IMG/VR virus record: IMGVR_UViG_3300030372_001947
Coordinates: 1 to 48,666 of that record
Length of the DNA stretch: 48,666 nt
Origin: a virus
Lineage: Duplodnaviria; Caudoviricetes
Reading direction: 5' to 3' (one strand)
Shown: positions 21,792 through 48,560 of the stretch, in pieces
Layout: each line of letters opens with the position of its first letter
Numbering within the stretch: the stretch's first letter is position 1
The notes under the pieces: generated by a model
Told to the model about the DNA's origin: nothing
What the model saw: only the letters and a program-made list of their open reading frames with translations
The model's database searches: none
Position numbers and translations under genes: made by a program

Positions 21792-21811
21792 ATTTTTCAT
21801 CTCCTTTATTT
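21786..21811 (-). promoter_or_regulatory. Duplicated translation initiation region AAATAAAGGAGATGAAAAA(A)TATGGCA (second copy 20584-20610)
   Basis: Near-identical 26/27-nt sequences upstream of MCP and the next gene. GGAGATGA has one mismatch to the archaeal SD GGAGGTGA. Confidence 0.75.
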
Positions 21812-23307: not shown

Positions 23308-26300
23308 CTAAACGCTAGACTGCTCTGCATTTTTATCTTTCTTTTTCTTATTTTTCATATGAGGGTACTCTTTCTCGGGGTCTTCGGTTGGGCGGTCTAA
23401 CATGTCCCAGTCAGGCATACTTTGTTCTGCGGTGAGTTCCGTGGGGCCTCTAGGGGACTCTATTTGTGCCCCCACATCTATACCTAACCCACGGGCACCT
23501 GTGGTATTGAACATCTGTTCTTTTTCAACTCTATCGAATAAATCAACTATTTTTTCTAAAGCCTTAACCATAGTTTTTAGTTTCTCTTCATCTTTAGGTT
23601 TCATAACATTATCTTCGGCATCGGCGTCTATGATACCCGCTGAGTTATCTTCTGACTGTTTTCTATTCTTTTCCTCTGCCATAGAGCGTGGCTTACTGGT
23701 TACTCCTTTTCTTAATAAAGCAACAGCGGTTGACCACACGGGTCTAAGACTTTCTGCTAATCTCATAGAATAGTTATTTTTCTTTAAATCGCCTAAAGCG
23801 GAACGAGGAGAATGAATCCATGTACCCGATTGTACCTCGTCCATTTTATACACAACATCATCTATTTCATTAAATGAAATTTTAAGTTTATTACCATCTA
23901 TTTCTAAGTCGTAAGGAACTTGTATGACTGGGTGTGATTTAGCGAGTAATCCTAAAGTTTCTAAACTAGCAGGACTTTCAATATCACTTTCTCCTTTAAT
24001 TTTAGACATAGTAACATCATAAATTACTCGACCATTTTTCTTTTTCTCTTTAACACCTGATACAGATACAGATATTATATCCCCCTCTTGGAAAGGTTTA
24101 GGACTTTTTACAGTACCCACATCAAGATAAAAATCATCTTCATATTCTACACCTCTGTTTCCGAGATTATCTTCATCAACGGGTCCCGCTCCTAATCTAT
24201 AAGTGTAAGGTCCTTTACCTCTAACATCTAATATAATGAAAGATATATCTTTATTTTTTCTCAGTAAGAACCATTTAGGGTGTCTTCTTTCTCCTTTCAT
24301 GTAAGTAGATTTAATATCTCTAAGTAATAATTGAGGATATGTTTTTTGTAAATCTGTAACAATTAAATCTAAACCTTCCTCGTCTGTAATACGGGTATTA
24401 TGTGGACCGGGGACTAATACATGCTCATGACTATCGAATTGTCCCCTTAAAATTTTAAGCCTTTCAGACGTAGCCATATCAGCAACCGTTGTACCATCAT
24501 ATTCTATGATATCAAAAATATGTATTTCATCTTTAGTTTTGATAGCGTCCACGATATAATTTCTTTCACATAGTGCTTTTAGTTGTTTGATATCCTCGCC
24601 CGATAAAGATACATCATTCCCGTTTTCATCATGAGCAGAGATTTTGTATCTTTTCTTTTCTATTAACATTCTTTGACCATCATAATAATGGGTTACCACC
24701 CATCCTCCGCTAAAACCTCTTAAGCACTCAAAATCTTTTGTTGTAAAGATTCTATGCATAGGTAATATAGGTGGAGGCTTTGTTTTATCTGTTTTTAACA
24801 AAGCATCAGGGTTCATCATCACCATTAATGTTTCACTGGGGTCGCTAGTTGATATGTCAGTTGAAATGCTTCCAGTACTACTATCAACTCCGATATCATG
24901 CCTAGATTCACCCATAACATCAGGTCCATAATAATTAGTTGTAATTATGGGTGCTTCGAAACCTGATGATAAAAATTGATTTACTGCGTCTTTTCCAAAT
25001 ACATCTTCCATTTGTTCTTGAGAAGGAGTATGTAAAAACTGCTCAAACTGTTGAGTGCCCACCACTGGTTTACCCCCACTGAATTCAAATCCTATAGTGG
25101 GAACTCTACCACCATATCCCGTATTCATCATACCACCATTATAGTAAGCCCCCACGGTGGCACTAGAGTCTGCTCTATTGGCGGGCCCTATTGGTACATT
25201 ATCCATAAATTTGGGTTTATTTACCATCGAGCCTTCCATCACAACGTTATCTGTCTCAGTAACCGCATCAGGATTCAATACAACCATACCGTGTGCGTGC
25301 GCTTTTGCCTGTTTAATAGGTGTTTTAATTTCACCCTTTTCTCCTGTGCCTTTTATTTTATCCCTAGCAAATGTGTTTTCGTCAAAACCATGAAAAGATA
25401 AACCGTAAGGCTCAAACTGATTTTTAACAGCATTACGTAAAAAATGTGGAATCATAGAAATATCTTTGAAATATTTACTTTGAGCAAACCCACCTTTGCT
25501 ACTTTTTCTGTTCATGAATCTTCTTCTTTCATCCTCATCCATGCCTTCTAACTGCTCTTTTCTCTTTTCATCAAATTTATCGTATAAACCATCTATATGT
25601 TCATGATGATTTTCAATTTCGGTATATTCAGAAAAATTTTGTCTAGGATGTATAGGTAACCCCGTGCTCATAATTTGAGCATTAGTTAAAACTCTGAATG
25701 GTCTATCAGAATATTTGTCTGCTAATTCTCTGATATGCTTGATATGAATATTATCGTTAGGTAAATTAAGAGCAGAAAGAATGGTTTCAACACCCTCATT
25801 ACTACTAACAGAATCGGGGTCTATTTCTACACCCATGTGTTGTAACACTTTTTGTAATGTGTGATGAGGATTGACGCCTTCTAAACCTTCAGATATACTT
25901 TTATCCCTTTCTTTATAATCACCATTATAACCATATGTGGTGAGTTTATGATAATCATGTGGTAATATCTTCAATCCACGGTTAGCATCGTAAAATAATC
26001 TAGCAACATTATCACTAAATTTTTGAGGATTATCGGGGTTAAAAGCATCAGGGTCTTTTTCTAATGCTAAAGGCGCTAGTAGTTTAGCCATTTCTGTTAT
26101 AGCATTTAAATCTGCAATTTCTGCCTTTTCGATTTCACGTTGCATTCGATGTTCTTTAGCACTATCGGGTTGAAGAGATTGAATTTCTTTTAATTGTTTT
26201 TTCTGTTCAAGGTATTCTAATTCTTCTTTGAATTTCTTTAATTCTTCTTCTGATAATTTTTCACCCACCACTGTGTTACCACTAGGAAGGGCTGTATCAG

Positions 26301-28869
26301 GCTTTTTACCATTGTTAATTATTTCGTCTAAAACTGTCATTCTTTCTATTTCAGCATCAGTAAATCCGACCTCTCTCCTTTTACTTCTTTCAGCAGTTCC
26401 TTTTGTACCAGCAGTATGACCTTGTCCTAATCTATATTCTAAGACACTATCCCCATGTGCTAAATTATCGGGATGCTTATCATAATCACTGTATTTTAAA
26501 TATTTTTTAGAAAATGGTTTATGGGGAGGATGATGTCTACCAAGAGTGGTTATTCTTCTAAAAGCAATTCTTGCTTTATTTTCAGTGTTAGCAAGTGGCC
26601 TTCCTTTACTCCCTATTGCGGTTAAAGGGTTTGTGCTGAAATAGGTTCCAACTGTATTGCCATCAATACCCCTCCGTACGGCTCCTCTTTTATCTTTGAC
26701 ACCAGTAAAATTTTGAAAATCACCATCACCCCAGTTAGCAACCTTGTTCGACCAACGTGGGAATTTAGAGGTCATACCATGTGTTGTGTTGTTCTTTAAA
26801 GTTCGAGGTCTACCTGTCGCTTTACCATTTACTAAATCTACAGGACTAGAGTGATTATATTGAGATATTATACTTTTAGGGTTGGAATATCTTAGAATAT
26901 CACCTTTTGTTTGTTCTTCGGGTATTACGTGTCCGAACAAACCAATTGTTTCGGGGTTACCTTCAAACATCCCTCTTGGGTCATCGGCGTTAACTCTACC
27001 TAGAATACTAAAACCATCTTTATTTTTAGGTAAAGTATCATGCCAATTTTTTAAACCATTAGCCCAATTTCTACCATGCCCCCCTAAAAAATGATGAGCA
27101 TTTTCGAAAGCCTCTCCTAAACCAACTCTTTGACCGTCTTTAATTCTCCAAAGATGTTTTTCATCATCAGGTATATCTTCTTCCTTAGGTCCATTAGAAC
27201 CACCGAATATTTGATTGTGAGCATTTCTAATCGGTTTAGCCATACCCAAAGAGCCCGCTTTCTTACTAGCAGAATCAAGTATCTCTTTCAAATGTTCTTG
27301 ACTCAATAAAGGCTCTTTAAAATTAGTGAATAAGTCGTGTTCGCCCAATACATCGTTTGTCTCAGAGTCATAACCTAAAAATCTTTTAAAATCATCTATA
27401 CTCAATTGATTATTATTACTATCAGAATCTTTATCTCTAAAACTCGTAGGTCCACCGTATTTTTTTACTGAACTTTTATCCATAGCAGGTAAATGTTCTA
27501 GGCCATGTTCCTGTTTTAAATCTCTTAATTCTTTTTCAGCGTCATATTCCTCGTTGGGGGATAATGATTTACTTTTTAGTTGCTCTTCCAAATTTTTAAT
27601 TCTTTTACTGTGGTCTTTAAATCCCAGTAATTGATTAGTTTTACCTAATAAATTAGCATACTCGGGGTGTTCCATTATAACATCTTTTAAAACATACCGA
27701 GTGTGAGCATCCATCCCACCTTCTACATCTTTATCTATATCCTCAACTGTGGTGTTCATATTAGGGCCGTGTTTACCTTCATCTCTTGTATAATGATTCT
27801 TAATCGCTTGAAGCCTCATTTTTGTATCGTTTTTAATCCTACCTATATTGACACGCTCTCCGTTAGATAATTTAATAATCTGAGCCTCGTTAGAATCACT
27901 ACCTTTTTCATGTAGGTGTTTATGAATTTCATATCTTTCTTTAGGGTCTCTAAATTCTAAACCGTGTAAATAGTCTTCGAAGCCTAATCCCTTTTTAACA
28001 GGTTTTTTTTGATAATATTCAGGCGGAAAATCTCCACCACCCTCTAGTGCTAATTCTACTTTTTCTTTATCAGAGAGAGTTTCTAAAGGGTCGATTTGAA
28101 AATGAGTTTCATCTGATTCCCATTCATTTATACGGGTGTGGTCAAAATGTGCCTTTCTTAATTCTAAATCTTGTATATCCTCGTTTGAATATTTTTCTTT
28201 TATCTCTTCTACTTGTTCTTTGTTATCAGGATTTTCTTTCCAATTGTTAAAATGTTGATTGTATATTTCATGTAAAGATTTACCTATTTTACCCGAGTAA
28301 GGATATTTTTTTACTTTATTAATTGTAAATATACCTGTGTAAAAAGGGTTTTGTTTATTGGTATGATGATTTTCATGGTTTTTTTCTATTTCAGCATATT
28401 CCTCCGCTAAACTTTTTTCACCCGGTGAGCGGGGTAAATAAAAACTATACAACATTTCATCTCTAGCGGTTCTACCCGTTACTATATTTTTAATCAATAA
28501 AGGGTCATGTAATTCATGCCAATTATTAGCATCATTATAATGACCACCCTCTACATTTTCAAAAGAAGGTTTACTACCGCTCATTTCGTGTATTTTTCTT
28601 TCTATTCCTCTACCATCCCATACTTGATTAGGAGCAATTCGTAATTCATCTCCTGCTTCAAAATCTGCTTTAGATTTAGAAACTGCTTTACAAACTAAAT
28701 CTTCCCAAGTGTTATCAAAATTACCATAGCCTTGTCTTTCTAGGTTTTCTAATGCTAAGTTATAATATGCTACATTATTTTCAAAATCTAATCCATCGTA
28801 AATAGATTTTATTAAATCATACCTGTGTCTTTTATAGACATCTATAGCATCTTCTCGCATTTTATTCAC
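23308..28869 (-). CDS. 1853-aa putative internal head protein with C-terminal degenerate ATP-dependent DNA ligase fold (adenylation + OB domains)
   Basis: C-terminal GWVVTHYYDGQRMLI (motif I lacking Lys), YIVDAI, IHIFDII, SERLKIL, LLLRDIKSTYMKGERRHPKW, DISFIIL...YRLG...LDVGTV. N-terminal ~1350 aa unrecognised. Confidence 0.75.
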   Translation of the reverse strand: MNKMREDAIDVYKRHRYDLIKSIYDGLDFENNVAYYNLALENLERQGYGNFDNTWEDLVCKAVSKSKADFEAGDELRIAPNQVWDGRGIERKIHEMSGSKPSFENVEGGHYNDANNWHELHDPLLIKNIVTGRTARDEMLYSFYLPRSPGEKSLAEEYAEIEKNHENHHTNKQNPFYTGIFTINKVKKYPYSGKIGKSLHEIYNQHFNNWKENPDNKEQVEEIKEKYSNEDIQDLELRKAHFDHTRINEWESDETHFQIDPLETLSDKEKVELALEGGGDFPPEYYQKKPVKKGLGFEDYLHGLEFRDPKERYEIHKHLHEKGSDSNEAQIIKLSNGERVNIGRIKNDTKMRLQAIKNHYTRDEGKHGPNMNTTVEDIDKDVEGGMDAHTRYVLKDVIMEHPEYANLLGKTNQLLGFKDHSKRIKNLEEQLKSKSLSPNEEYDAEKELRDLKQEHGLEHLPAMDKSSVKKYGGPTSFRDKDSDSNNNQLSIDDFKRFLGYDSETNDVLGEHDLFTNFKEPLLSQEHLKEILDSASKKAGSLGMAKPIRNAHNQIFGGSNGPKEEDIPDDEKHLWRIKDGQRVGLGEAFENAHHFLGGHGRNWANGLKNWHDTLPKNKDGFSILGRVNADDPRGMFEGNPETIGLFGHVIPEEQTKGDILRYSNPKSIISQYNHSSPVDLVNGKATGRPRTLKNNTTHGMTSKFPRWSNKVANWGDGDFQNFTGVKDKRGAVRRGIDGNTVGTYFSTNPLTAIGSKGRPLANTENKARIAFRRITTLGRHHPPHKPFSKKYLKYSDYDKHPDNLAHGDSVLEYRLGQGHTAGTKGTAERSKRREVGFTDAEIERMTVLDEIINNGKKPDTALPSGNTVVGEKLSEEELKKFKEELEYLEQKKQLKEIQSLQPDSAKEHRMQREIEKAEIADLNAITEMAKLLAPLALEKDPDAFNPDNPQKFSDNVARLFYDANRGLKILPHDYHKLTTYGYNGDYKERDKSISEGLEGVNPHHTLQKVLQHMGVEIDPDSVSSNEGVETILSALNLPNDNIHIKHIRELADKYSDRPFRVLTNAQIMSTGLPIHPRQNFSEYTEIENHHEHIDGLYDKFDEKRKEQLEGMDEDERRRFMNRKSSKGGFAQSKYFKDISMIPHFLRNAVKNQFEPYGLSFHGFDENTFARDKIKGTGEKGEIKTPIKQAKAHAHGMVVLNPDAVTETDNVVMEGSMVNKPKFMDNVPIGPANRADSSATVGAYYNGGMMNTGYGGRVPTIGFEFSGGKPVVGTQQFEQFLHTPSQEQMEDVFGKDAVNQFLSSGFEAPIITTNYYGPDVMGESRHDIGVDSSTGSISTDISTSDPSETLMVMMNPDALLKTDKTKPPPILPMHRIFTTKDFECLRGFSGGWVVTHYYDGQRMLIEKKRYKISAHDENGNDVSLSGEDIKQLKALCERNYIVDAIKTKDEIHIFDIIEYDGTTVADMATSERLKILRGQFDSHEHVLVPGPHNTRITDEEGLDLIVTDLQKTYPQLLLRDIKSTYMKGERRHPKWFLLRKNKDISFIILDVRGKGPYTYRLGAGPVDEDNLGNRGVEYEDDFYLDVGTVKSPKPFQEGDIISVSVSGVKEKKKNGRVIYDVTMSKIKGESDIESPASLETLGLLAKSHPVIQVPYDLEIDGNKLKISFNEIDDVVYKMDEVQSGTWIHSPRSALGDLKKNNYSMRLAESLRPVWSTAVALLRKGVTSKPRSMAEEKNRKQSEDNSAGIIDADAEDNVMKPKDEEKLKTMVKALEKIVDLFDRVEKEQMFNTTGARGLGIDVGAQIESPRGPTELTAEQSMPDWDMLDRPTEDPEKEYPHMKNKKKKDKNAEQSSV

Positions 28870-30214: not shown

Positions 30215-31963
30215 TTACGCACCTCGTAACCTTCTTGAATCCATCAATGCTTGTGAATTTTGTTGCGGTATCGTGGGTGGCAAACCTCTTTGTTGAACGT
30301 TAGAAATAGGAGAACCTATACCACCCGTACTTCTTTGTTGTGGCCTTGCTGGACTTCTTGGAGTTCTAATTCCTTGACCTTCTCCGCCCGGTTGCGAAGG
30401 AGGCATCGCTCCCATACCCATACCCATACCCGGTGGAACTGCACTTCTACCACCCGGTGCATTCGGAGGCATACCGCCTCCCATAGGCATACCACCTCTC
30501 ATGGGCATTTGCGGTTGTGCTTGTGGTTGTTGCGCTTGCTCATCTATTTTTTTGTAAGTAAACCTGACATCTCTTTCGCCTTCTTCCATTAATTCAGGTT
30601 TATACCCAAGCATTTGCATTCTTTGTGCTAAGTTAACTTCCATTTCATCACGGCGCAGTCTTGTAATTTCATCTTCTTCTTCGTTTGGATACAATGTAAT
30701 TTTCCAATCACTAATACCCATTTCTCTTAAAAGACGAGGGAATAAAACTTCAGTGTAAACTTTCTGTCCGAACTCAACCGCTCTATTGGTCACAAGAATT
30801 TGTAAACCTTCATTATTTAACCCACCCGATTTACCATTATCAATCATAAAGATAGATGATACACCAAAGAATGCTGCTATTCTATTTCTTATTTCATCAC
30901 GAACAGCGATATATTGCATTTCTTCGAGAGTATCCATAAATTTAATCCAATTAACTCCTCCACGGCCAGTTTGACTTTCAATACCAACTTTAGGAATATA
31001 ATGCGGGTCTCTTTCAAGTTTTTCATCAACACCCTTCCAAAAAGATTTCATTGATTCTAAATTATCAGTGGTTACTGAAATTATACCTTTGGGACTTCTA
31101 CGTTTTTGATATGCTGTGTACATATAATTATCCATAGCAGTTAACGTCATGGCTTGTCTCCATAATGTATTGACGGGGCTTTTACCATACAATTTACTTG
31201 GATTATATTTAGAAATATGTAAAACTTCTCCTTTTGTGAAATATTGATTTTTACCCGAACCAGCCATATTAACATAATGAGCATCTACCATTTCTGCCCC
31301 ACAAGTAGGACAAGCGTTATCTTGACCGGGATAAGCCACTTGGTCTCTATGTAATCTACAGATTCGATATCTTCCACCTCTAACTCCACGTTTATCGGCA
31401 ATAATACGCATAAATATAGGGTCTCCCCTAACTATTTCCTTGATACGATAAAATTGAATTTCTCCTGTTTCTTCGTCTACATAATACTCCTTGATTAATA
31501 TTAAGAAAGCATCGTCTACAATGTTCAAATCTCTTTCTATTTCATATAATACTTGTAAAAAGGATTGTTCCATAGAATTTTCTTGATTTAATAACCACTT
31601 ACCATATATTACATCGTCTACTTTGGGCTCTCTTACTTCCCCACCACATGAAGGGCACTCCTCTACATCGTGTTGAAACTCTTCTTCACATTCAACACAT
31701 TTTTTTCGGAATTTCTTTTCCCAATAATAACCACGTCTAAATATTTCTTGGTTTAATTTAGATGTAACAGTTCTGAGGATTAAATTTTCATGTGTGACTG
31801 CATACAATGCTGGTAATGTAATACCTTGTGCTAAAACAGGCTCTTGAATACCAGTGGTATACAAAGGCATTTGAGGCTGTGGAGTTGTTCTTCTTCTAAA
31901 TGGACTAGCCAATGCTGATAAGAATCTACTAATCCTACTTTCCCCTGCATCGTCTTCAGCCAT
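30215..31963 (-). CDS. Portal protein with inserted zinc ribbons and P/G/M/Q-rich C-tail
   Basis: IERDLNIVDDAFL, FTKGEVLHISKYNPSKLYGKSP, PKGII, EMQYIAVRDEIRNRIAAFFGVS; lies between TerL and the protease. Confidence 0.9.
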   Translation of the reverse strand: MAEDDAGESRISRFLSALASPFRRRTTPQPQMPLYTTGIQEPVLAQGITLPALYAVTHENLILRTVTSKLNQEIFRRGYYWEKKFRKKCVECEEEFQHDVEECPSCGGEVREPKVDDVIYGKWLLNQENSMEQSFLQVLYEIERDLNIVDDAFLILIKEYYVDEETGEIQFYRIKEIVRGDPIFMRIIADKRGVRGGRYRICRLHRDQVAYPGQDNACPTCGAEMVDAHYVNMAGSGKNQYFTKGEVLHISKYNPSKLYGKSPVNTLWRQAMTLTAMDNYMYTAYQKRRSPKGIISVTTDNLESMKSFWKGVDEKLERDPHYIPKVGIESQTGRGGVNWIKFMDTLEEMQYIAVRDEIRNRIAAFFGVSSIFMIDNGKSGGLNNEGLQILVTNRAVEFGQKVYTEVLFPRLLREMGISDWKITLYPNEEEDEITRLRRDEMEVNLAQRMQMLGYKPELMEEGERDVRFTYKKIDEQAQQPQAQPQMPMRGGMPMGGGMPPNAPGGRSAVPPGMGMGMGAMPPSQPGGEGQGIRTPRSPARPQQRSTGGIGSPISNVQQRGLPPTIPQQNSQALMDSRRLRGA

Positions 31964-33187: not shown

Positions 33188-33757
33188 TTAGTACCCCTTA
33201 TCTACTCTTACTTTTCCCCTTCTCTTTTTATCAAGGAAGAAACTTGTGGGGTCTTCTTCTCTTAACTGTCGAAGCATATCTTGCCCACGAGTATTAAATT
33301 GAGCAACTTTTTGTTTTCCATGATGTAATGCATTCAATGCTTGAAGAAATGCTCTACGTTGGTCACTTCCACCAACATTAGCACTAAACTTAGAAGGGAA
33401 TCGCTTGGCCTCAATGTAATCAGGAGACTGTCTTCCTTCATCATACAATAAATTTGCATATTCACCTTTGCCCTCGGGTGTTAAAATATTTGATGCCGCT
33501 GTTCCGTATCTATCAATTACGGATTGCTCGTATGCTGGCCCTCTTTGCATAGCAGATGCTACATCGGCAAATCTACGTGCATTAACAGAGTCTCCTGCTC
33601 CTCTCATACTTTCAGATTCTTGTAACAAATCTTCTACGCTTGCTTTCTTTTTAGTATCAGGGTCAGAAACTTTAGTTGGAGTTTTTCCACCTTTCTTTCC
33701 AACTGATATTATTAACACCATTCCGTGTTTCTTTCCGCCTAGTTTTTTTTCTTTCAT
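33188..33757 (-). CDS. Hypothetical basic protein
   Basis: ORF track starts at 33799; ATGA overlap with the TerL stop suggests the start is 33757 (MKEKKL). Confidence 0.65.
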   Translation of the reverse strand: MKEKKLGGKKHGMVLIISVGKKGGKTPTKVSDPDTKKKASVEDLLQESESMRGAGDSVNARRFADVASAMQRGPAYEQSVIDRYGTAASNILTPEGKGEYANLLYDEGRQSPDYIEAKRFPSKFSANVGGSDQRRAFLQALNALHHGKQKVAQFNTRGQDMLRQLREEDPTSFFLDKKRRGKVRVDKGY

Positions 33758-35244
33758 GGTATCATCCATCCTCCGCCTTTGCCCGTTCCCGATATCCATC
33801 CATCGAAACCCGGTAAATAATCATCTAGTAACATAACAGACCCTCTAAACTCTTTTGTACCCCAATTAGCAAGCGCCAAAGACATAGCCAAGTCATCATG
33901 AGTTCCCACGCTTTCCAACCTTCCATTTTTTTGCATTCCGAATCTGTTTAACTCCATTTCTAACTTATGTGTAAACTCACGGCTCCTCTCATCTCCATAC
34001 GGAGTTTTGATTTGCCCCTGCTCGAAGGCCATGAGTAAACTCATAAAGAGGCTTTCCTTTCGAGTGCGTGTGGTCATAAATGTTCTAATTGGAATATCTT
34101 GTCTAATATCTTGAAGTTCCATCGCAAACATTCTTTGAAAATTATTACCTTCTAATTCTATTAAATCGGGTTGAAATCTATTATTTAACAATATTATTTT
34201 CTTTTTCTGAGCCATTGAAGACATACCTCTTTCATGCACTATCCCTATAATTTGTTTAACATCATCATCAGGAGGAGTACGAAGAACTGTCATCGCAGTA
34301 AAGTCAGCATTTTTATCAGATGCAATAGCAGTATCCCATCCTATGAAATGATGACCAAATACTCCCGCTGGTTCACCTTCTTCATCGAATTCTGTTTCAG
34401 CCCTATCTAGTAAAACTAAATCTTTATCTCTTGCATTTTCAAGAACATTCATAGGAAACATACTCGCTACATCATGAATTGGTTCACATAAATATTCACG
34501 AGCAAATTGTATGGCTGGCATAGCATTTCGTCTTTGGTCTAGTGCTTCTAAGTCCCAACGCTCAGGCCACAACGCTTCACCTTTGTCGTTTATAGCAGGA
34601 TATGTTTCAACAAGAAAAGCATCTTTTTGTTCAAGTTCTGCGTATAAATCATTATAAGAAAACGGAGTTCCTACCATCATCAATCTTGCTGTGTGGTGGA
34701 GTACTGGTAATAAAACAGCATAAAACCAATCTGCTGCTCTTTGTAATTCAGAAGATGTATTACCCCAAAGAATATCGTCACATACTACTACATCGGGATG
34801 GAAACCACGAGTAGCCCCACCTACCGATTTAGCCATCATACGACTACCATTTGTAAATTCAAAATATGATTTAGCCCAAGGTTTTCCTCCTGTGGGTTTT
34901 AGATGTCTTAAACAAGGAGCCATATCTATACAGTTACGAATAAAACGCATATGTTCTAGTGTCTGTTCAAGACTGTGACTGAAAATCATGATGTGTGTTT
35001 TCGGATTAAAAGCAGCAATCCATAATGCATACGACATAAATAATGTAGACTTACCGTGGTCACGAGATGCTTTAACACAATAATATCTTTCATTTGTTAA
35101 ACCTTCATCCCATTTTTTATGATGGTCAGAATAATGAAAACCCAATACAGTTTCAAAGAAATACTTGAAAGAACGCTCGGACATTTTAGTGTCCATCTCT
35201 ATGAGAAGTTCCTGCATTTGCTGTTTATCTTGCATATTAACCAC
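33754..35244 (-). CDS. terL: Terminase large subunit
   Basis: Walker A ASRDHGKST, Walker B VVVCDD, coupling motif VGTP, RNase H-like IGWDTA...ADFTA...THDDLAMSLA. Confidence 0.95.
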   Translation of the reverse strand: MVNMQDKQQMQELLIEMDTKMSERSFKYFFETVLGFHYSDHHKKWDEGLTNERYYCVKASRDHGKSTLFMSYALWIAAFNPKTHIMIFSHSLEQTLEHMRFIRNCIDMAPCLRHLKPTGGKPWAKSYFEFTNGSRMMAKSVGGATRGFHPDVVVCDDILWGNTSSELQRAADWFYAVLLPVLHHTARLMMVGTPFSYNDLYAELEQKDAFLVETYPAINDKGEALWPERWDLEALDQRRNAMPAIQFAREYLCEPIHDVASMFPMNVLENARDKDLVLLDRAETEFDEEGEPAGVFGHHFIGWDTAIASDKNADFTAMTVLRTPPDDDVKQIIGIVHERGMSSMAQKKKIILLNNRFQPDLIELEGNNFQRMFAMELQDIRQDIPIRTFMTTRTRKESLFMSLLMAFEQGQIKTPYGDERSREFTHKLEMELNRFGMQKNGRLESVGTHDDLAMSLALANWGTKEFRGSVMLLDDYLPGFDGWISGTGKGGGWMIP

Positions 35245-39822: not shown

Positions 39823-40219
39823 CTATACCACTCACCATAATATTTTCGAATATACATCTTAGCGTTGATGCTACGTCTCTATAGAAATTGCTGACTCTAG
39901 GGTTATTTAAAAACGCACGCTGCATATTATCAACCACTAAATCATATTCTTCTAGTAAACCGTTTAATAATTTAACAGCAGGGAAGAAATCTTGAGGCTC
40001 ATCATTATTGTACACAGTATCAAAAGATTTTATCATAGCAGGAAACAAATCTATAGGCGTGACATTTATGTCACCGTAGTGTTCGAACCTTTCTGTTAAT
40101 TTAATACAATAATCGAGGAAAGTAGGAACATCTCTCTCAGTCATTATCCTACCTAAATTTACATAACGATAACCCGGATGGGTTACTTGTAATAGGTCAG
40201 GAACTGGCACTGCTAACAT
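39815..40219 (-). CDS. Hypothetical helical protein
   Basis: 134 aa; TAATG coupling with the upstream gene and AGGTGA RBS. Confidence 0.7.
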   Translation of the reverse strand: MLAVPVPDLLQVTHPGYRYVNLGRIMTERDVPTFLDYCIKLTERFEHYGDINVTPIDLFPAMIKSFDTVYNNDEPQDFFPAVKLLNGLLEEYDLVVDNMQRAFLNNPRVSNFYRDVASTLRCIFENIMVSGIDD

Positions 40220-40899
40220 TACATATCACCTGCTTGGTCTATCAATTGGCTACGAATTCTCGCCCATGTATCAGGACTTTCTTTACCCAACTCAACTTTA
40301 AGAATGTTGATTGTGTTATGAATTTCGCCATTTTCACTCGTTGCTCCCCAATTTTCTTGCATTTTAATTAAATCTTTTATTGACTCTCTGACTTCTTTGT
40401 GCAAAGACACTGCATCTTTGACGAAACCGTCTTCGTGTATACTCCCATCATGGAGCAATTCGGACAACTTGTCGTTGAGTTTTTCGACATTATTTCGAAG
40501 TACATTTAATTCTCCTCCAACGGCGAGACTGGTCTCCGCTATAGCACTGCGTTGCACTAGGGGTTGAAAATGGTTTTTCATATGATGGTACACAGTGGTC
40601 TCAGCGAGTTCTAACTCTTTTGCTATATTTTCGGACTCACTACCATCTTGAAAATATCTAGTTTCAAACTCTGCTCTTTGCGGATGAGTGCAAATTTTAC
40701 ACTGTGGATTAGCAGCCATATGATACTGACCCATATGGTTTCTAAAATGCCTGTCAGAAGTATTTAACCTCCAACCCATTTCTTTATCTAATTCTTTAGG
40801 AGACATAGTACCGTTTAATAAAGCCTCTTCTAAATCATCTCTACTAGGGTGCTGACAGAAAGGACAAGACCTTTTGGTGACTCTATTATCTTCTCCCAT
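40219..40899 (-). CDS. Putative terminase small subunit (tandem Zn-HTH domains + coiled coil)
   Basis: Two repeats CxxC-x-HP-x-R...HTH...H-xxx-H (CPFC...HFRNH; CKIC...HMKNH), then a coiled coil. First gene of the operon leading to TerL. Confidence 0.55.
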   Translation of the reverse strand: MGEDNRVTKRSCPFCQHPSRDDLEEALLNGTMSPKELDKEMGWRLNTSDRHFRNHMGQYHMAANPQCKICTHPQRAEFETRYFQDGSESENIAKELELAETTVYHHMKNHFQPLVQRSAIAETSLAVGGELNVLRNNVEKLNDKLSELLHDGSIHEDGFVKDAVSLHKEVRESIKDLIKMQENWGATSENGEIHNTINILKVELGKESPDTWARIRSQLIDQAGDM

Positions 40900-40959: not shown

Positions 40960-41265
40960 ATGTTCCGTAGAATGAAGCGAGTTCCACGGCAAAATATATC
41001 TACCAAAATAAAAGAGGTTAAGAAAGCAACTAAAGACATAATTAACAAAAGTAGAGTAACGGAGAGTCAATACAAAAATAGATTGAAAACATGTAATGAT
41101 TGTATTTATCTAATGAGGTCTACTAATATGTGTAGAGTTTGTGGGTGTTTCATGAAAATAAAAGCAGCCTTACCATCTTCTGTTTGTCCTCTTGGTAAAT
41201 GGTCACTTAGAGATTCGAGTGTAAATCCCACCCAACATGACGATGGATGCGAAAATTCCGATTAA
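40960..41265 (+). CDS. Cys-rich small protein (DUF6171-like by recalled pattern)
   Basis: RLKTCNDC...CRVCGCFMKIKA...CPLGKW; the only convincing plus-strand gene. Confidence 0.75.
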   Translation: MFRRMKRVPRQNISTKIKEVKKATKDIINKSRVTESQYKNRLKTCNDCIYLMRSTNMCRVCGCFMKIKAALPSSVCPLGKWSLRDSSVNPTQHDDGCENSD

Positions 41266-41460
41266 AAATATACTTACTTCGTTTGTACTCAATTGAGAGC
41301 CTTTGAAAACTAGTATGAAAAATAAAGTAACTATAATGCTCAGAAATTGCACCATAATCATGTCAGTGATTACTGACCTTTTTGGCGCAAACATATTTAC
41401 GCTCGCTACACTAAATCCACGTAATGCATTGTTCATAGGGTCCGTTGGTTGTCTCATCAT
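41203..41460 (-). CDS. Small two-TM membrane protein (holin-like topology)
   Basis: Hydrophobic helices MIMVQFLSIIVTLFFILVF and VSIFLIGIFASIVMLGGIY. Confidence 0.75.
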   Translation of the reverse strand: MMRQPTDPMNNALRGFSVASVNMFAPKRSVITDMIMVQFLSIIVTLFFILVFKGSQLSTNEVSIFLIGIFASIVMLGGIYTRISK

Positions 41461-41470
41461 ATTATCACTT

Positions 41471-42148
41471 TCACTTATTAGTCGGTAGTCCTATTAATCC
41501 ACGAGCGACACTACCAATTCCTCCGCCCACTTTATTCATCATCCCTTCGTCTTGTAAAGCAGCAGACAAAGCACCACCCATCATTGATTGTTGAGCCATA
41601 GCCATGATTTGCTGTCTTTGCATTTCGGCTTGTTGAACACTTTGTTGACTTTGCGCCACCATATTAGTTAATATCATACTAACGTTTTCCGCACTCAAAG
41701 TTTGTAATTCTGTGGGTAAAGAGGTAGCGTCTAGTTTCATAGCACCTTCATCTTCATTCATAACAAAAGTTGCATTCTTTAAAATATTAATTAAACTTAA
41801 ACTAGTAGCGGTAGCGACTAAATCTATAATTGAGCCAAGACCACCTTCTGCTATAAAACGATGTATAGGATTTTGTGATTGTAAAAGAGATGCCATGATT
41901 TCCATTTCAGACGGAGGCGCTATTTGCCCGTTCTGCATCATCATTTGCTGTTGTTGGTTCATTCCCATTCCTCCCATCATGCCGCCCATAAAAGGATTAG
42001 GTTGTTGTTGTTGGGGTATAAATTGCGCTGATGCTAAACCTACCCCTAAATTATTTCCATATTGATTATTTGTAGGAGCACCACTCATTGAAAGATTCAA
42101 TGCACCATTATTTTGTTGAGATTTATTAAAACCGAACATACGTATCAC
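41471..42148 (-). CDS. Q/M/G/N-rich low-complexity protein with amphipathic helices
   Basis: QQQQPNPFMGGMMGGMGMNQQQQ; C-terminal VGGGIGSVARGLIGL. Confidence 0.75.
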   Translation of the reverse strand: MIRMFGFNKSQQNNGALNLSMSGAPTNNQYGNNLGVGLASAQFIPQQQQPNPFMGGMMGGMGMNQQQQMMMQNGQIAPPSEMEIMASLLQSQNPIHRFIAEGGLGSIIDLVATATSLSLINILKNATFVMNEDEGAMKLDATSLPTELQTLSAENVSMILTNMVAQSQQSVQQAEMQRQQIMAMAQQSMMGGALSAALQDEGMMNKVGGGIGSVARGLIGLPTNK

Positions 42149-43098
42149 ATTCCCGGACGAAGGCCCTCCCCATCAATGTTTTGCTGGTTACGTTGTATTT
42201 TTAATGATTCTTGTGCGAGTAAATCTTCAAAAGCCTGTGTGGGTTGATTCATTTGCATTAATTCTTGTTGAAATATACGCAAATCAAATACAACCATCGT
42301 AACATCATTTTGACCAGTTAAGGGGTTAGCATAATGTAAAACATTGATACCCTTTGTTTTTCCAGCATCTCTTTCTAACTCAGCGAAAAAAGGCTCATAC
42401 TTTTTTAGCATTTCAGGGGTAGGGTCTTTTTTCTTGAAAGATGCGACTGGCACAGTGACTATTGAAACTCCACGTTTTACTTTGTCACGAAGACGACTTG
42501 GATTCATTTCATTTTGTTTGTCTTCCTCTGCTTCCCATTTACATAATAAATGATACAAGTGAAGATGTTCAGGACAATATGTTCCTCTCATTTTTTTACC
42601 ACTTGTAACTTTATCACGAGCGATAAAAGCCTCGGGTTGACCAGTAACAGGGTTTTCCCAATACATTTCCCATAAAGAGCGGCCAGTTTCTTCATCACTG
42701 ATTCTCATGTAAAGATTATCATGTTTAATAAGTTCAGCAACATTAGCGCCGTCTACAACACAAGTTCCAGTGTCTTTATTATAACGATATTTTCTACCAA
42801 ATAACCACCTTAAAGGATTAAATATTGAGCGTTTCGCTGGTTGTAAAAGTTTGTATGCCTGTTTAATATCTCTTTTACGGGCTTTTCTTGGGTCAGGATG
42901 GGTGCTTGGGTAAAAATTTACTTTAGGTACATCTATATTTTGAGTAGCGGCTAAATCCTGCATTCCTTGTTGTGCCGCCATCATTTCTTGTAACGCAGCA
43001 TGGGTAAGTTGTTGATTACCTTGTGATGCAAGATTGGTTATGTGTGCCTCGTTTACCGTGTATAACGGTTGTGAGGCAGTAGGTTGAAACATCATCAT
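42145..43098 (-). CDS. Hypothetical protein with Q-rich N-terminus and possible metal-binding CPEH motif
   Basis: 317 aa; amphipathic SIFNPLRWLFGRKY; TCVVD...YCPEHLH; GGAGATGA RBS. Confidence 0.75.
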   Translation of the reverse strand: MMMFQPTASQPLYTVNEAHITNLASQGNQQLTHAALQEMMAAQQGMQDLAATQNIDVPKVNFYPSTHPDPRKARKRDIKQAYKLLQPAKRSIFNPLRWLFGRKYRYNKDTGTCVVDGANVAELIKHDNLYMRISDEETGRSLWEMYWENPVTGQPEAFIARDKVTSGKKMRGTYCPEHLHLYHLLCKWEAEEDKQNEMNPSRLRDKVKRGVSIVTVPVASFKKKDPTPEMLKKYEPFFAELERDAGKTKGINVLHYANPLTGQNDVTMVVFDLRIFQQELMQMNQPTQAFEDLLAQESLKIQRNQQNIDGEGLRPGM

Positions 43099-43289
43099 TT
43101 CTTTTCATCTCCTTGTACGGGTCTAAGCATTACTACCATATCACCGTTTTCCACTTTAAATTTCCAAGAAACTTTATCTCCTGCATCTAAATTATAATGG
43201 TCTACAATCCACATAGGAATTGTAGTTCTAAGGCTACGACTACCTCCACCTGTAGATACTAAAACAGTGGATGTATTCTTTGTGCCCAT
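43095..43289 (-). CDS. AbrB/MazE/SpoVT-family DNA-binding protein
   Basis: SLRTTIPMWIVDHYNLDAGDKVSW matches the archaeal-type swapped-hairpin consensus. Confidence 0.85.
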   Translation of the reverse strand: MGTKNTSTVLVSTGGGSRSLRTTIPMWIVDHYNLDAGDKVSWKFKVENGDMVVMLRPVQGDEKK

Positions 43290-43335
43290 GTCTATCCCAC
43301 ATATATTTTATTCAAAAGGTTATTGTTAAGGTCAT

Positions 43336-44058
43336 TCATGTGGTCAAGAGGTCTAACATGCATTGTTCTACGTTCCATCCTATGCGTGTAGCCATAAAAG
43401 AGCGTTTTGTGGGAATGCCCGCTTTTTGTAATCTTATGAGGTCATCCCTGAAGGGGTCGAAAATTTTATGCTCTCCTATTCTACCATCATGCCATAATTT
43501 AGATGCGGTTTCATCAAAGAATCTATCCGCCTTATTAGCAATCAACATTACAATTCTAGGTCTGTATTTTCTACCTTTAAACCTAGACCACATAGAACGA
43601 TAACGATAATTTCTATTTATGAGGCAATCCACTAAATAACGAAATCCAGCAAGTTGTTGTACACCTGAGTCTCCACCTTTAAACGCTCTATCATCAAATA
43701 CGTAAACCACCGCCTCAACTCCTCTAGTCACCATATCTTCTATCCAAAGATTCCAAAATCTTTCTTGACCGCCTAAATCAGCAGAATATACAACTCTTTT
43801 TTCCCCTCTCCAACTAACACGCTTTCTAGTGGGTTTAGGCATTTTATACTTACCTATTTTTAGAATACGAGAATGAGTGGTTCTATCTTCTTCGGGTATA
43901 TCTTCCATTTCACCCGGTGTAGTCATATATCTATCCAGTGTAGTTTTACCAACCATGGGTGCCCCATAAACACCTACTTTACGGGGCTTGTAGGAATTGA
44001 ATAAATGCTGTCCCCACATCGCTGCTCCAACGAGAGCAGTACTTGCTGGTTCTACCAT
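43336..44058 (-). CDS. Ras-superfamily small GTPase, Arf/Arl-like
   Basis: G1 GAPMVGKTT, G3 DLGGQERFWNLW, strand EAVVYVFDD, G4 IANKAD, G5-like FMAT, terminal GWNVEQCMLDLL; N-terminal hydrophobic helix. Confidence 0.9.
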   Translation of the reverse strand: MVEPASTALVGAAMWGQHLFNSYKPRKVGVYGAPMVGKTTLDRYMTTPGEMEDIPEEDRTTHSRILKIGKYKMPKPTRKRVSWRGEKRVVYSADLGGQERFWNLWIEDMVTRGVEAVVYVFDDRAFKGGDSGVQQLAGFRYLVDCLINRNYRYRSMWSRFKGRKYRPRIVMLIANKADRFFDETASKLWHDGRIGEHKIFDPFRDDLIRLQKAGIPTKRSFMATRIGWNVEQCMLDLLTT

Positions 44059-44061
44059 GTT

Positions 44062-44328
44062 CTAATTCCACCAAATTAACCAATCAATTAAACCCTCTAA
44101 CTTTTTAATTACCCAGTTTACAGTATTTTCATATAAACTAAAATCTTGATTATGAAACTCATAACCACTAATTATTAATGTGGATATAATAGAAAACACA
44201 ATTGCTTTAAACCAACCCCAAGTTCTTTCATATGTAGTGTCTACAGTGTTGGCTAGATGTATGGCTCTAAGTGTTCCTTCTGTGGCATTATCAGAAGGTG
44301 TTTTAAAAATACGACCCATTACACTCAC
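44062..44328 (-). CDS. Small membrane protein (one TM + C-terminal amphipathic helix)
   Basis: WGWFKAIVFSIISTLIISGY; VNWVIKKLEGLIDWLIWWN. Confidence 0.75.
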   Translation of the reverse strand: MSVMGRIFKTPSDNATEGTLRAIHLANTVDTTYERTWGWFKAIVFSIISTLIISGYEFHNQDFSLYENTVNWVIKKLEGLIDWLIWWN

Positions 44329-44942
44329 TCCCCTGTATTATCAGGAGAGGATGTTTTTTTATTATATCTTTTATCTATAGTTCCATCTTTTTTTAAACGA
44401 GTATTTTCTTCTACGCCTAGAGATAGAGGTTGTCTTATATTAGCAGAATGAGAAGGTAAGTTGGGAGGTTCGTTATAATATTGAGAAACTAAAGAAGGAG
44501 GGCCACCTGATACTCCCCAAGAAGGAGGCATTTGACCGGGGTTTTGTTCCATCCATCTCAATTCTTGTTCTAATTGAGCCTCTTTCATCCTTAATTCCAT
44601 TTCACCTCTCCTTTTATCAAAATTTTCTTGCATGATTCTGTATTGATATTGGCGGTTTCTATCCAAGTTAGTCGTTCTAACTCTTTCTTGCATTCCTTGT
44701 TCGAAAAACATTTTAAACACATAATATGCTATTCCTTGTACAAAAAAAGCAGCCATGGCGTATGTAAAACCATTTAACCAAGGTGTGTCATTTATTAACC
44801 ATATATCGGCATCAAATACTCCAATGGCTACTCCCACTAGAGCACTTTGTGCTAATATTAATCCCATTAATCTTATTTCTGCATCGTGTTGTTCTTGACC
44901 TTCCATTAGGACCACTGATGTGTCCACTAGAGAGGTCAACAT
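44325..44942 (-). CDS. Two-TM membrane protein with cytoplasmic coiled coil
   Basis: LMGLILAQSALVGVAIGVF and FTYAMAAFFVQGIAYYVF, then a coiled coil, a Pro-rich linker and KKDGTIDKRY. Start is probably MEGQEQ (44903). Confidence 0.8.
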   Translation of the reverse strand: MLTSLVDTSVVLMEGQEQHDAEIRLMGLILAQSALVGVAIGVFDADIWLINDTPWLNGFTYAMAAFFVQGIAYYVFKMFFEQGMQERVRTTNLDRNRQYQYRIMQENFDKRRGEMELRMKEAQLEQELRWMEQNPGQMPPSWGVSGGPPSLVSQYYNEPPNLPSHSANIRQPLSLGVEENTRLKKDGTIDKRYNKKTSSPDNTGE

Positions 44943-44953: not shown

Positions 44954-45754
44954 TCAGAAAGGTATAGAGATATTTTTCAACTTATTTATATCAATATTGG
45001 TTTCTATACCACGTTTATGTGCCCAATCTACTAGATTTTCGGTAGACAAGTTACCTTTGGTGTTAGGCATAAAAGGACAACCACCTAACCCGTGAATACT
45101 AGAATCAAACTCTCTCACTCCTTTTTCGTAGGCTATCTCGACTTTATCCAATAAATCTTCACCATGTAAATGTAAACTGATATTATAATCTTTAACTAAA
45201 TCTAAAATTTTGGCTAAAGTATTGATGTCAGCAGAGCCGATGGTATCACAAAGAACAATAGTATCTCCTAATCGACTAGCCTGTTCTACAGCATTAATCA
45301 CCATATCATTACTAGGAATACCTAAATAAGGACAACCGAAGATAGTAGAAATATAAACTCTAACATTTTCTTTCGGAGTGTCTTTTAACATTTCTTTGAA
45401 TTCATCAATAATCTCTTCCATGTTTTTACCAAGGTTTCTTTGATTGAATTCATTAGAGCAAGAGAAAAATATATTAACCTTCTTTATACCAAGTTCTTTT
45501 GCTTTTTCAAAACCGTGTTTATTGGGTATTAAAACAGAGAATTCACAAGATAGTTCGTTTAATTGTTGATACACTTTATCTGAATCAGCCATATTAGGTA
45601 CTCTTTTGGGATGAACAAAAGCACCAAATTCTATGTGATTTATACCAGCATCGTTTAATTGTCTGATTAAATCAACTCTTTCTTCTACTGATAGTTTGAT
45701 AGAATGACCTTGTAATCCATCTCTAGGTCCGACTTCATGTATCAGCATGGACAA
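44954..45754 (-). CDS. hmgL: Hydroxymethylglutaryl-CoA lyase (DRE-TIM metallolyase), auxiliary metabolic gene
   Basis: IHEVGPRDGLQ, AFVHPKRVPNMAD, LCDTIG, HLH metal motif, GLGGCPF catalytic Cys loop, GNLSTE. Confidence 0.92.
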   Translation of the reverse strand: MSMLIHEVGPRDGLQGHSIKLSVEERVDLIRQLNDAGINHIEFGAFVHPKRVPNMADSDKVYQQLNELSCEFSVLIPNKHGFEKAKELGIKKVNIFFSCSNEFNQRNLGKNMEEIIDEFKEMLKDTPKENVRVYISTIFGCPYLGIPSNDMVINAVEQASRLGDTIVLCDTIGSADINTLAKILDLVKDYNISLHLHGEDLLDKVEIAYEKGVREFDSSIHGLGGCPFMPNTKGNLSTENLVDWAHKRGIETNIDINKLKNISIPF

Positions 45755-47408: not shown

Positions 47409-47974
47409 CTCTTAAGTGCCGCACCTTTAGGTGTTAATTTACCTTTTTTACTAGTAGGCCCCTTAACACCTGTCATTCTAGCGCAAAATGATTTTCTACG
47501 TTTTGCTTTTTTTGAGCCTGCTTTGAGTTTACTAGGTTTAGTAGTGACTGGTGGTTTTAGGTTAGCACCAGTTTCTCTTTTTGCTTTCGCTCTACCTTTG
47601 GCACTCAATCCACCTTTACGATGATGTTTACTTGGGTTATACCCGTGAAAAGGTTTTGATTTCTTTTTTGCTTTCAATAATTCCCAAGCCGCCTCGAATG
47701 CATCTGATTTTTCTACTCTTTGATACATTGGTTTCACACCTTTTCCTCTTGGTACATGTTGCTTTCCTTTTTTGTGCCCTTGTCTTTTCTTTTTATTTTC
47801 ACTCGCTTTTTGTGAGGCAGTCATACTATCTGCGACTGATTTAGGAGCGTATCGACCTCTTTGTGAACGAGGTTTCTTCATTTCTTTTTTGTCGTCTCCA
47901 ACAAATTCCCATTTTTGTTTAGTCCACTCTGTTAAAGATTGTTGGTTTTTATCCTTAGTCACGATACCCTCCAC
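47396..47974 (-). CDS. Two-domain basic protein (DUF5872-like C-half + DUF6321-like, by recalled pattern)
   Basis: SLTEWTKQKW...GRYAPK...KGKQHV; linker DAFEAAWELLKA; KGGLSAKGRA...RRKSFCARM...ALKRWNC. Confidence 0.65.
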   Translation of the reverse strand: MEGIVTKDKNQQSLTEWTKQKWEFVGDDKKEMKKPRSQRGRYAPKSVADSMTASQKASENKKKRQGHKKGKQHVPRGKGVKPMYQRVEKSDAFEAAWELLKAKKKSKPFHGYNPSKHHRKGGLSAKGRAKAKRETGANLKPPVTTKPSKLKAGSKKAKRRKSFCARMTGVKGPTSKKGKLTPKGAALKRWNC

Positions 47975-48560
47975 CTTTCTTTTTGTATCTCATAGCAAGT
48001 AATTGTGCTTTTCGAGCAGACCATTGACCCGGCTTACCACCTTTACTACCTGCTTTTATTCTGTTGAATAATCTTTTACGCATTCCCGGTTTTGTATAAT
48101 TACCAGCAGCGTTTACTTTTTTACTTAGGATTTCTCTATTTTTCTCTTTTAACTCATTCCACGCTTTATTCATAGCATCGTTATCGTACATATTTATCAC
48201 ATCTTTACTTTTTTGAGCGTCTCCACGTATACCAGCATTTAACATACTTCTTGCTCTATCTTCTCTACTTTGAGTTCTTTGTTGAGCCATGGCTTGTTGT
48301 TGTTGAGCCATTTGTGCTGCCGTAGTAGCACCTTGGAGTTTAGTATTTTTTTCTTCTTTATTACCAGTGATAGCATCTCCGACTTTACCACCTGTTTTTC
48401 GACCTAATATACTACCTAATATACCACCAGCAACTGTTCCAATCGGTCCAAACTTTGAACCCATCCGTGCTCCTCGTACAGCACCTCCTACGGTGCCGCC
48501 TATTTCACCAACTTTTTCTCCTGTTTCTCCTTTGAGAACTAAAACATTAGAATCAGGCAC
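47955..48560 (-). CDS. Glycine-zipper protein fused to basic GQWSARKAQ domain (DUF5872-like N-half)
   Basis: GGTVGGAVRG...GPIGTVAGGILGSILG; DAMNKAWNELKE; NYTKPGMRKRL...GGKPGQWSARKAQLLAMRYKKKGGGY; AGGTGA RBS. Confidence 0.7.
   Translation of the reverse strand: MPDSNVLVLKGETGEKVGEIGGTVGGAVRGARMGSKFGPIGTVAGGILGSILGRKTGGKVGDAITGNKEEKNTKLQGATTAAQMAQQQQAMAQQRTQSREDRARSMLNAGIRGDAQKSKDVINMYDNDAMNKAWNELKEKNREILSKKVNAAGNYTKPGMRKRLFNRIKAGSKGGKPGQWSARKAQLLAMRYKKKGGGYRD

Follow-up and report, generated by a model that had tools for sequence, protein, structure and literature searches.

The small-GTPase fold, the idea that a small GTPase can remodel membranes (Arf, ArfR and ArvA), and the occurrence of GTPases in giant viruses and in a mobile region of Asgard archaea are already known. 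How tailed archaeal viruses are released from wall-less hosts is an open question for which no machinery is known, according to the accessible part of PMC10791045. Here, we describe a five-gene cassette built around an Arf-like small GTPase in a 48,666-nt stretch of viral DNA (IMG/VR record IMGVR_UViG_3300030372_001947, positions 1 to 48,666; hereafter, the window). The order of its genes is kept in five lineages of elements at about 35-60% GTPase identity, and the cassette occurs both with and without a detectable head-tail module. Judged by its sequence, the GTPase is a virus-borne family of its own, very divergent and Arf-like. We tentatively suggest, at somewhat less than an even chance, that the cassette acts at the host membrane as a switch timed by GTP and triggers virus release late in infection.

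The closest folds are those of the Arf family (Arf6, Arl8, Arl2, Sar1 and SR-beta) and of Asgard ArfR (GerdArfR1, PDB 8OUM/8OUN), with which, on the accessible part of 10.1101/2024.02.28.582541, the viral GTPase shares a G-domain fold, an N-terminal helix, a DxGG...W switch II and an invariant Trp; the GTPases of one lineage, 1b, also keep an Arg/Lys three residues before that Trp. However, the viral protein is at most 20% identical to Arf proteins in structural alignments, carries two large insertions, lacks Gly2, varies at the catalytic Gln and is encoded with four orphan partners, and Foldseek ranks Rabs above Arfs. The ArvABC (OapABC) operon of Haloferax and other archaea, a vesiculation operon with a role in membrane remodelling, likewise combines a helix-bearing small GTPase with a Cys-containing partner in a fixed operon (PMC10927574, accessible part). 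The cassette differs in having integral membrane partners and in being viral rather than chromosomal, and its GTPase is likened to ArvA by description rather than by alignment. PVAP, which drives pyramid egress in STIV, SIRV2 and SIFV, resembles the cassette in being a small membrane protein with a helical tail and in serving as an egress device across virion morphologies, but it is a single 10-kDa protein for which the accessible text of PMC10791045 describes no nucleotide switch, and no sequence match between PVAP and the cassette was found. The Rab/Ran proteins of giant viruses are also small GTPases in viruses but are not close (at most 19% identity to the cassette GTPase), and Atabeyarchaeia carry two Arf-like GTPases in an integrated mobile-like region (10.1101/2024.03.22.586370). 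Both of these groups differ in resembling named eukaryotic-type GTPases, and the accessible parts of their descriptions mention no conserved membrane cassette.

In the window, seven open reading frames (ORFs) of 205, 88, 240, 64, 317, 225 and 85 aa are co-oriented on the minus strand, which carries all long ORFs of the window, and are separated by -4, 3, 46, -4, -4 and 10 bases, an operon-like packing (Table 1). A preliminary description, made from the sequence alone, had listed the same seven ORFs at the same positions, and its membrane topologies agree with the hydropathy peaks (two in the 205-aa, one in the 88-aa and two in the 85-aa protein). The conserved unit is five of these genes, which encode a two-transmembrane (2-TM) coiled-coil protein, a 1-TM protein, the GTPase, a Cys/His protein and a Q/M-rich protein. 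The cassette had been placed just before the packaging genes, a position that is not conserved: about 6 kb separate it from the terminase gene in the window, and in lineage 2 it follows the capsid gene.

Conservation of the unit was followed in lineage 1 (the window's own), lineages 1b, 2 and 4, and magrovirus group D. In lineage 1, for which 80 close loci were compared for gene content and 81 for gene order, the five genes stand in order on one strand in 78/81 loci, and no more than 419 upstream bases are available in the three loci that miss. Taken alone, gene order in lineage 1 is weak evidence, since the whole late region is syntenic there and the downstream genes are kept as well as the cassette. 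Genes 2-5 are found in 15/15 loci of lineage 1b and gene 1 in 13/15 (one truncated, one undetected). Figures for lineage 2 refer to the best 80 of 375 IMG/VR matches, whose GTPase is about 37% identical; the order is complete in 69 of these 80, the remainder lying near locus ends (82 loci were first counted, two of which were later moved to lineage 1b). All five group D loci have the five genes in order, three of them with the same cassette proteins, and lineage 4 (10 of 11 loci analysed, one 24-residue match being left out) keeps this order except that an additional, acidic gene stands ahead of the GTPase gene. Every order miss in lineages 1, 2 and group D is at most 880 bases from a locus end. 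The genomic setting changes: the cassette lies upstream of the terminase block in lineage 1, has the capsid gene on one side and the neck/tail genes on the other in lineage 2, and adjoins the thermosome gene in group D and glycosyltransferases in lineage 4. Because the order is kept while the setting differs, the cassette moves as a unit. In profile-profile comparison with group D, all five genes of lineage 1 have their best match on the positional diagonal, and so do those of lineage 2 (E 5e-3 or better). Co-conservation of the neighbours with the GTPase, named beforehand as one of the points on which the idea of a joint module could be refuted, was thus found across five lineages.

Across 80 loci, the GTPase is 66-98% conserved versus about 71-96% for the terminase. 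As a test in which loci were not chosen by the GTPase, 80 loci were fetched by the capsid protein and the 14 on contigs over 50 kb were used, of which 10 carry the GTPase. Three of the four others extend 13-16 kb upstream of the capsid gene versus about 21 kb needed in the layout of the window. The fourth, record G367 (L324, L325), is rated 100% complete but opens within the HMG-CoA lyase gene and stops where the terminase gene begins. It was rejected as a complete genome without the cassette because its ends miss exactly the cassette stretch, and its completeness rating is overstated since the part between the HMG-CoA lyase gene and the terminase is missing.

Two further genes of the window lie outside the conserved unit. 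The AbrB regulator of the preliminary description does match the MazE/AbrB family and occurs in 79/80 close loci of lineage 1, but no match was found in lineage 1b (0/15), lineage 2 or group D, and it was rejected as a core part because it is confined to lineage 1. The sixth, 85-aa 2-TM gene is present in lineages 1, 1b and 4 but was detected in neither lineage 2 nor group D loci.

Table 1. Positions of the cassette genes, of their context in the window and of the group D ATPase block.
Feature	Coordinates	Strand	Basis or remark
Core gene 1, 205 aa, two predicted membrane helices, then a charged helical (predicted coiled-coil) stretch	44325..44942	(-)	
Core gene 2, 88 aa, conserved soluble N-terminus and one predicted membrane helix	44062..44328	(-)	
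Core gene 3, 240-aa Ras-superfamily small GTPase, Arf/Sar/SR-beta-leaning, N-terminal helix	43336..44058	(-)	motifs, model
AbrB/MazE-type DNA-binding protein, 64 aa, accessory	43095..43289	(-)	Pfam PF04014, E 1.1e-5
Core gene 4, 317-aa soluble orphan, C-x2-[D/C]...C-x2-H motif	42145..43098	(-)	
Core gene 5, 225-aa Q/M-rich protein, conserved core ending in T-x-EN motif, one mildly hydrophobic stretch	41471..42148	(-)	
Sixth gene, 85 aa, two predicted membrane helices	41203..41460	(-)	hydropathy peaks 2.74, 2.3
HMG-CoA lyase-like gene, context, outside cassette	44954..45754	(-)	Pfam HMGL-like, E 6.7e-30
Terminase large subunit, context, head-tail module	33754..35244	(-)	Pfam, PHROGs
Portal, head-tail module	30215-31963		Pfam, PHROGs
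Prohead protease, head-tail module	21815-23248		Pfam, PHROGs
HK97-type capsid protein, head-tail module	20625-21800		Pfam, PHROGs
Group D FtsK/HerA block	L186:3747-12133 (record G001); L241:9195-17773; L242		

The GTPase had been described as a complete member of the Ras superfamily, and this is borne out: the ORF contains GAPMVGKTT, a conserved R59-T60, DLGGQERFWNLW, EAVVYVFD and NKAD, and a model built on a 41-sequence alignment (predicted local distance difference test score, pLDDT, 86.6) gives a G domain with insertions and an N-terminal helix at residues 4-23. Among distinct relatives examined, NKxD is present in 156/156 and DxGG in 155/156, the P-loop is conserved, and the switch II GG and final Trp occur in 155/155. 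The catalytic Gln (position 98) reported for the window is there and in 116 of 155 distinct relatives, but the remaining 39 have E (20), D (15) or H (4). The spacing between T60 and D94 is 34 residues, versus 24 in lineage 2, because of an insertion. The protein is basic (42 K+R vs 28 D+E), with a basic insertion around residues 149-168. Its hydrophobic N-terminal helix, as it had been called, is modeled as a helix (pLDDT 60-75 for residues 1-20) but appears only modestly amphipathic and is not transmembrane, with a moment of 0.45 in the window protein and lineage medians of 0.55-0.69.

A resemblance to Arf/Arl had also been proposed, and it holds loosely. Profile searches and VIA favour Arf, Arl, Sar and SR-beta: the best VIA matches of the model are an Arf6 fusion (Z 17.3), Arf6 (17.0; root-mean-square deviation 2.6 over 162 residues), Sar1 (16.6), SR-beta (16.1) and an Asgard Rag (15.7), with G domains of translation factors at Z 13-15.6, and the profile search returned PDB 8OUN first (E 2e-7) and then, after RecA P-loop noise, Arl8. 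Foldseek, however, ranked Rabs first and GerdArfR1 fifteenth with nearly tied E-values. The leading Trp of the Arf switch II signature, which we take to read wDvGGqxxxRxxW, is missing in all relatives read, and the position of its Arg is R/K in 15/15 lineage 1b proteins and Trp in 71/71 of the window's lineage. That Arf proteins have a switch II signature is stated in the accessible part of PMC6724607. Residue 2 is mostly Val, so the Gly2 needed for myristoylation is missing; ArfR and Arl8, as far as their accessible descriptions go, likewise lack this signal, so membership in the wider Arf family is still compatible with its absence. The viral GTPase is thus a Ras-superfamily protein whose modelled fold leans to the Arf side, with Arf-family membership unproven.

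Other families were rejected. As noted in the preliminary description, no roadblock or COR partner was found among the neighbours in the Pfam scan; for MglA/Rup, in addition, the viral switch II is GGx, which differs from the PGQ type that we take to mark this family, and PGQ-type host GTPases fall in the outgroup. For ROCO, the one sign is a sub-threshold Roc match (E 0.007) in an ORF of 240 aa, longer fused forms not having been searched for. The view that the GTPase is not a recent host capture also stood: its profile matched in 1/251 Poseidoniales genomes, on a virus-like contig, and in a quick tree 39 viral family rows form one clade separate from 24 Thermoplasmatota GTPases. This tree has only Thermoplasmatota outgroups, with no Arf, Rab or Asgard references, is midpoint-rooted for drawing only, and has long branches that meet. 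A search of 1.84 billion representatives gave 74 GTPase matches with identity down to 28%; in the Atlas, the best-matching clusters are 100% viral, followed by clusters of bacterial GTPases that partly carry Arf labels. When two lineage representatives were compared by tblastn with 50,697 phage records, nothing matched at E 1, and scans of viral contigs with P0127 and P0194 returned none; a scan of genome contigs, with a single pattern of low sensitivity, gave 4 matches. Separately, some Thermoplasmatota genomes not of Poseidoniales size encode up to 14 Ras-like small GTPases, and at least one match was present in 57/121 sampled genomes.

Of the partners, core gene 1 (hydropathy peaks at 25 and 62, values 2.18 and 1.45; 78/80 close loci) has no family in Pfam or PHROGs, and its profile matches the gene in the same position in group D (P 96%, E 1.6e-9) and lineage 4 (E about 1e-15). 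Core gene 2 (one peak, 1.5; 80/80 close loci) matches its group D counterpart with P 83% and E 9.4e-6. Two Q/M-rich proteins had been reported; this description fits core gene 5 (12% Q, 11% M) but not core gene 4, which has 8% Q and consists mostly of a conserved domain with the Cys/His motif. In core gene 4, C113 and C175 are invariant and H178 nearly so (motifs CVVDG/CVICG and GTYCxxH), which is predicted from the sequences to form a metal site. Its profile links reach P 100% to group D and 71% to lineage 2, searches of Pfam, PDB and the Atlas gave no family and nothing usable, and it is a candidate regulator or effector of the GTPase. Core gene 5, with profile links between lineages of P 31-96% and low-complexity Q/M/N/P tails in every lineage, is a candidate scaffold.

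The window contains a head-tail module identified with Pfam and PHROGs, and its capsid protein is 34-35% identical to those of the haloviruses HCTV-1, HCTV-5 and HVTV-1. The flanking HMG-CoA lyase-like gene is variable in position and occurs in 30/80 close loci; such a gene has already been noted for Aoguangviridae, e.g., in the classified magrovirus YSH_150918 (PMC10768690). Like YSH_150918, the window combines a head-tail module related to Druskaviridae with an HMG-CoA lyase gene, although the profile of Magrovirales in PMC10768690 names no GTPase and the window is likened to the order rather than placed in a family. A relative of the cassette was found on a 106-kb contig inside a Poseidoniales single-cell assembly, the virus-like contig that gave the single match of the GTPase profile in Poseidoniales genomes. 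Because of the head-tail module, the HMG-CoA lyase flank and this relative, the window is regarded as a fragment of a magrovirus-type tailed virus, for which we infer the host link.

Magrovirus group D was defined by PolB, thermosome, resolvase and RNA polymerase subunit A without a head-tail block, and its nature was left open in the accessible text of PMC5434244 and PMC10160649. All four defining genes are present in record G001 (110 kb, rated 79% complete), in which no terminase and no match to the window-type capsid protein were detected. Among group D records, the GTPase occurs in 4/4 and the window-type capsid protein in 0/4; because of this, the cassette looks capsid-independent and host-facing. 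Three GTPase-bearing group D records share a block with an FtsK/HerA-type ATPase, a basic repeat protein and three to four conserved orphan genes. The ATPase has HerA and FtsK profile matches, as well as a match to a PHROG labelled terminase, and the arginine finger that we assume for FtsK/HerA ATPases is missing from the two group D sequences read. A model of the most conserved orphan (pLDDT 37.6) had jelly-roll capsid or scaffold proteins as its top 6 of 48,161 chains (Orf virus, P23-77 VP16, PBCV-1, EhV-201, P23-77 VP17 and HCIV-1) with Z-scores of 3.1-3.9 that lie under the usual noise level; for this capsid candidate, neither Foldseek nor sequence searches of the PDB returned anything. 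As a lead rather than proof, this raises the possibility that group D is a large virus without a tail that encodes an RNA polymerase subunit of its own. A 247-aa group D protein (L188:6878-7621, minus strand) with one membrane helix and a coiled coil has a sub-threshold match to the v-SNARE N-terminal Pfam family (E 8e-4), which is probably compositional.

A function on the host membrane is favoured because the five genes are inherited jointly, two of them encode predicted membrane proteins, the Arf-like switch has a helix and a basic insertion, the cassette is located in late regions, and it looks independent of the capsid. Release is favoured among such functions because all of these elements need it, no genes for it are known, and PVAP, an egress protein common to unrelated virion types in the accessible text of PMC10791045, is a precedent for sharing. 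In tailed members, the cassette lies among or just upstream of morphogenesis genes. The ArvB family was found in 0/61 Poseidoniales genomes, with positive controls detected, which gives no sign of a vesiculation operon that the viruses could borrow from the host. The claim that the window has no recognisable holin/endolysin cassette agrees with our scans: no holin family matched among 30 proteins scanned in Pfam and 41 in PHROGs, holins being poorly conserved, and the matches of one protein (47955-48560) to endolysin and tail-lysin PHROGs run across a Gly-rich stretch and are read as compositional. The 85-aa and 88-aa proteins are holin-like in size and hydropathy.

We infer every step of the mechanism that goes past gene content and fold. 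The 2-TM and 1-TM proteins would build up in the cytoplasmic membrane, on which the GTP-bound GTPase would dock via its N-terminal helix and basic insertion. The Cys/His protein, as a GTPase-activating protein (GAP) or effector, would set the timing, and the Q/M-rich protein would collect the parts into a patch. The nucleotide switch might then cause the membrane proteins to oligomerise and open or deform the envelope, through which finished particles of either capsid type could leave. A bolder version, which we consider somewhat unlikely, is that the cassette works as an egress machine timed by GTP and has passed between two realms, represented by tailed HK97 magroviruses and by group D as a large tailless jelly-roll virus, in the same marine archaea; it would then be the missing release mechanism, with a virus-made Arf-like membrane switch and a new GAP or effector fold.

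Several observations weigh against a release machine. Family and structure searches found no resemblance of the partners to holins, PVAP, GAPs or guanine nucleotide exchange factors, and the Cys/His motif is not universal, as core gene 4 of lineage 4 lacks the second pair. The membrane genes of lineages 1 and 2 have no significant direct profile match (P under 1%). In the lytic halovirus HCTV-1, whose capsid protein is 34% identical, neither the GTPase nor the Cys/His protein found a match; related tailed viruses therefore exit without the cassette. The capsid assignment for group D rests on the low-scoring jelly-roll model described above. Finally, an enrichment of group D in cellular fractions, as opposed to those of virions, has been reported (PMC10160649, accessible part), which suits a non-lytic element and fits lysis less well.

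This enrichment is better accommodated if the cassette is a viral counterpart of ArvABC that drives vesicle formation or budding (non-lytic release, decoys or membrane for a virion with an internal membrane, which group D may have) instead of opening the cell. The Arf-like GTPase ArvA begins with an amphipathic helix, and its Zn-ribbon partner has been proposed to be its GAP (PMC10927574, accessible part); the viral pairing of a GTPase with a Cys/His partner has the same outline. Membership in ArvABC itself was rejected, as the cassette proteins scanned have no Pfam match to ArvB (DUF2073) or ArvC (DUF2072). This also speaks against a vesiculation role, as do the integral membrane partners, which are not part of ArvABC in the accessible text, and the lytic lifestyle predicted for tailed HK97 particles of about 100 kb (PMC10768690). 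We regard a vesiculation role as unlikely.

The low-complexity tails of core gene 5, the position of the cassette next to morphogenesis genes or a chaperonin, and the near-complete replisome encoded by magroviruses would suit a membrane anchor for a replication or assembly site, in which the Q/M-rich protein is the scaffold and the GTPase controls its assembly or hand-over to packaging. The cassette is, however, common to elements with apparently different capsid and packaging systems, so that a contact specific to portal or terminase is unlikely, and the core genes matched no family that binds nucleic acids; the probability of such an anchor appears low. Equally low is that of a takeover of the host envelope without release, i.e., a division block, superinfection exclusion or surface remodelling. 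Sharing of the cassette by unrelated elements of presumably the same hosts points in this direction, as do the glycosyltransferases next to it in lineage 4 and the AbrB regulator inserted in lineage 1, and small membrane proteins are typical of exclusion systems. Yet the GTPase is conserved nearly as strongly as the terminase and the cassette is present in every record covering the region, and such conservation and constant presence are unusual for exclusion genes. A linkage by descent only, in which the GTPase has a non-membrane role such as in translation or protein folding, is suggested by the synteny downstream of the lineage 1 cassette, the Z-scores of translation-factor G domains and the very basic GTPase, but is very unlikely because the five genes keep their order in four genomic settings with differing flanks and the profile matches of lineages 1 and 2 to group D lie on the diagonal.

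The elements that appear new are the viral GTPase family, its four orphan partners and their spread across these elements. None was found in the literature searched, although annotation tables may list the gene; JGI automatic annotation already labels some family members 'GTPase SAR1 family protein'. In the magrovirus literature searched, no paper paired magroviruses with a GTPase and the cassette was not named; in the parts accessible, the string 'GTP' is missing from the main text of PMC11706807, PMC5434244, PMC10160649 and PMC5332604, and no GTPase terms occur in the supplements of two of these. Magroviruses are abundant in the ocean, and the cassette offers five small, expressible genes that bear on the question of how tailed archaeal viruses exit. 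An Arf-like switch borne by viruses and lacking a close cellular relative bears on the spread of membrane-remodelling GTPases beyond Asgard archaea and eukaryotes. The occurrence of the cassette in group D ties that unexplained element to the same host-facing machinery and is a lead on what group D is.

Some minor observations were also made. Metagenome contigs of up to 81 kb (L327-L336) represent a fourth, unclassified cassette element, in which the inserted acidic gene encodes 256-260 aa and the neighbours are two glycosyltransferases, a TFIIB-like gene, a resolvase and small basic membrane proteins. Two cassette-bearing contigs of 8-9 kb (L165, L166) in assemblies labelled Maricaulis and Parvibaculum are probably misbinned viral contigs. 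A scan for bacterial promoters and terminators, with models unsuited to archaea, was at chance level (22 vs 21.6 expected). An ORF of at least 3603 aa at 3-10811 (minus strand) has no PHROG match and, by its position, is likely a tail or adhesin protein. Between the portal and prohead protease genes, a 1853-aa protein (23308-28869, minus strand) has a sub-threshold match to ATP-dependent DNA ligase at residues 1437-1533. A Cys-rich DUF6171 gene on the opposite strand (40960-41265, plus) overlaps the end of the cassette and is found in 54/80 close loci. The 226-aa double helix-turn-helix protein encoded at 40219-40899 (minus strand), possibly the small terminase subunit, is kept in 80/80 close loci and in lineage 1b.

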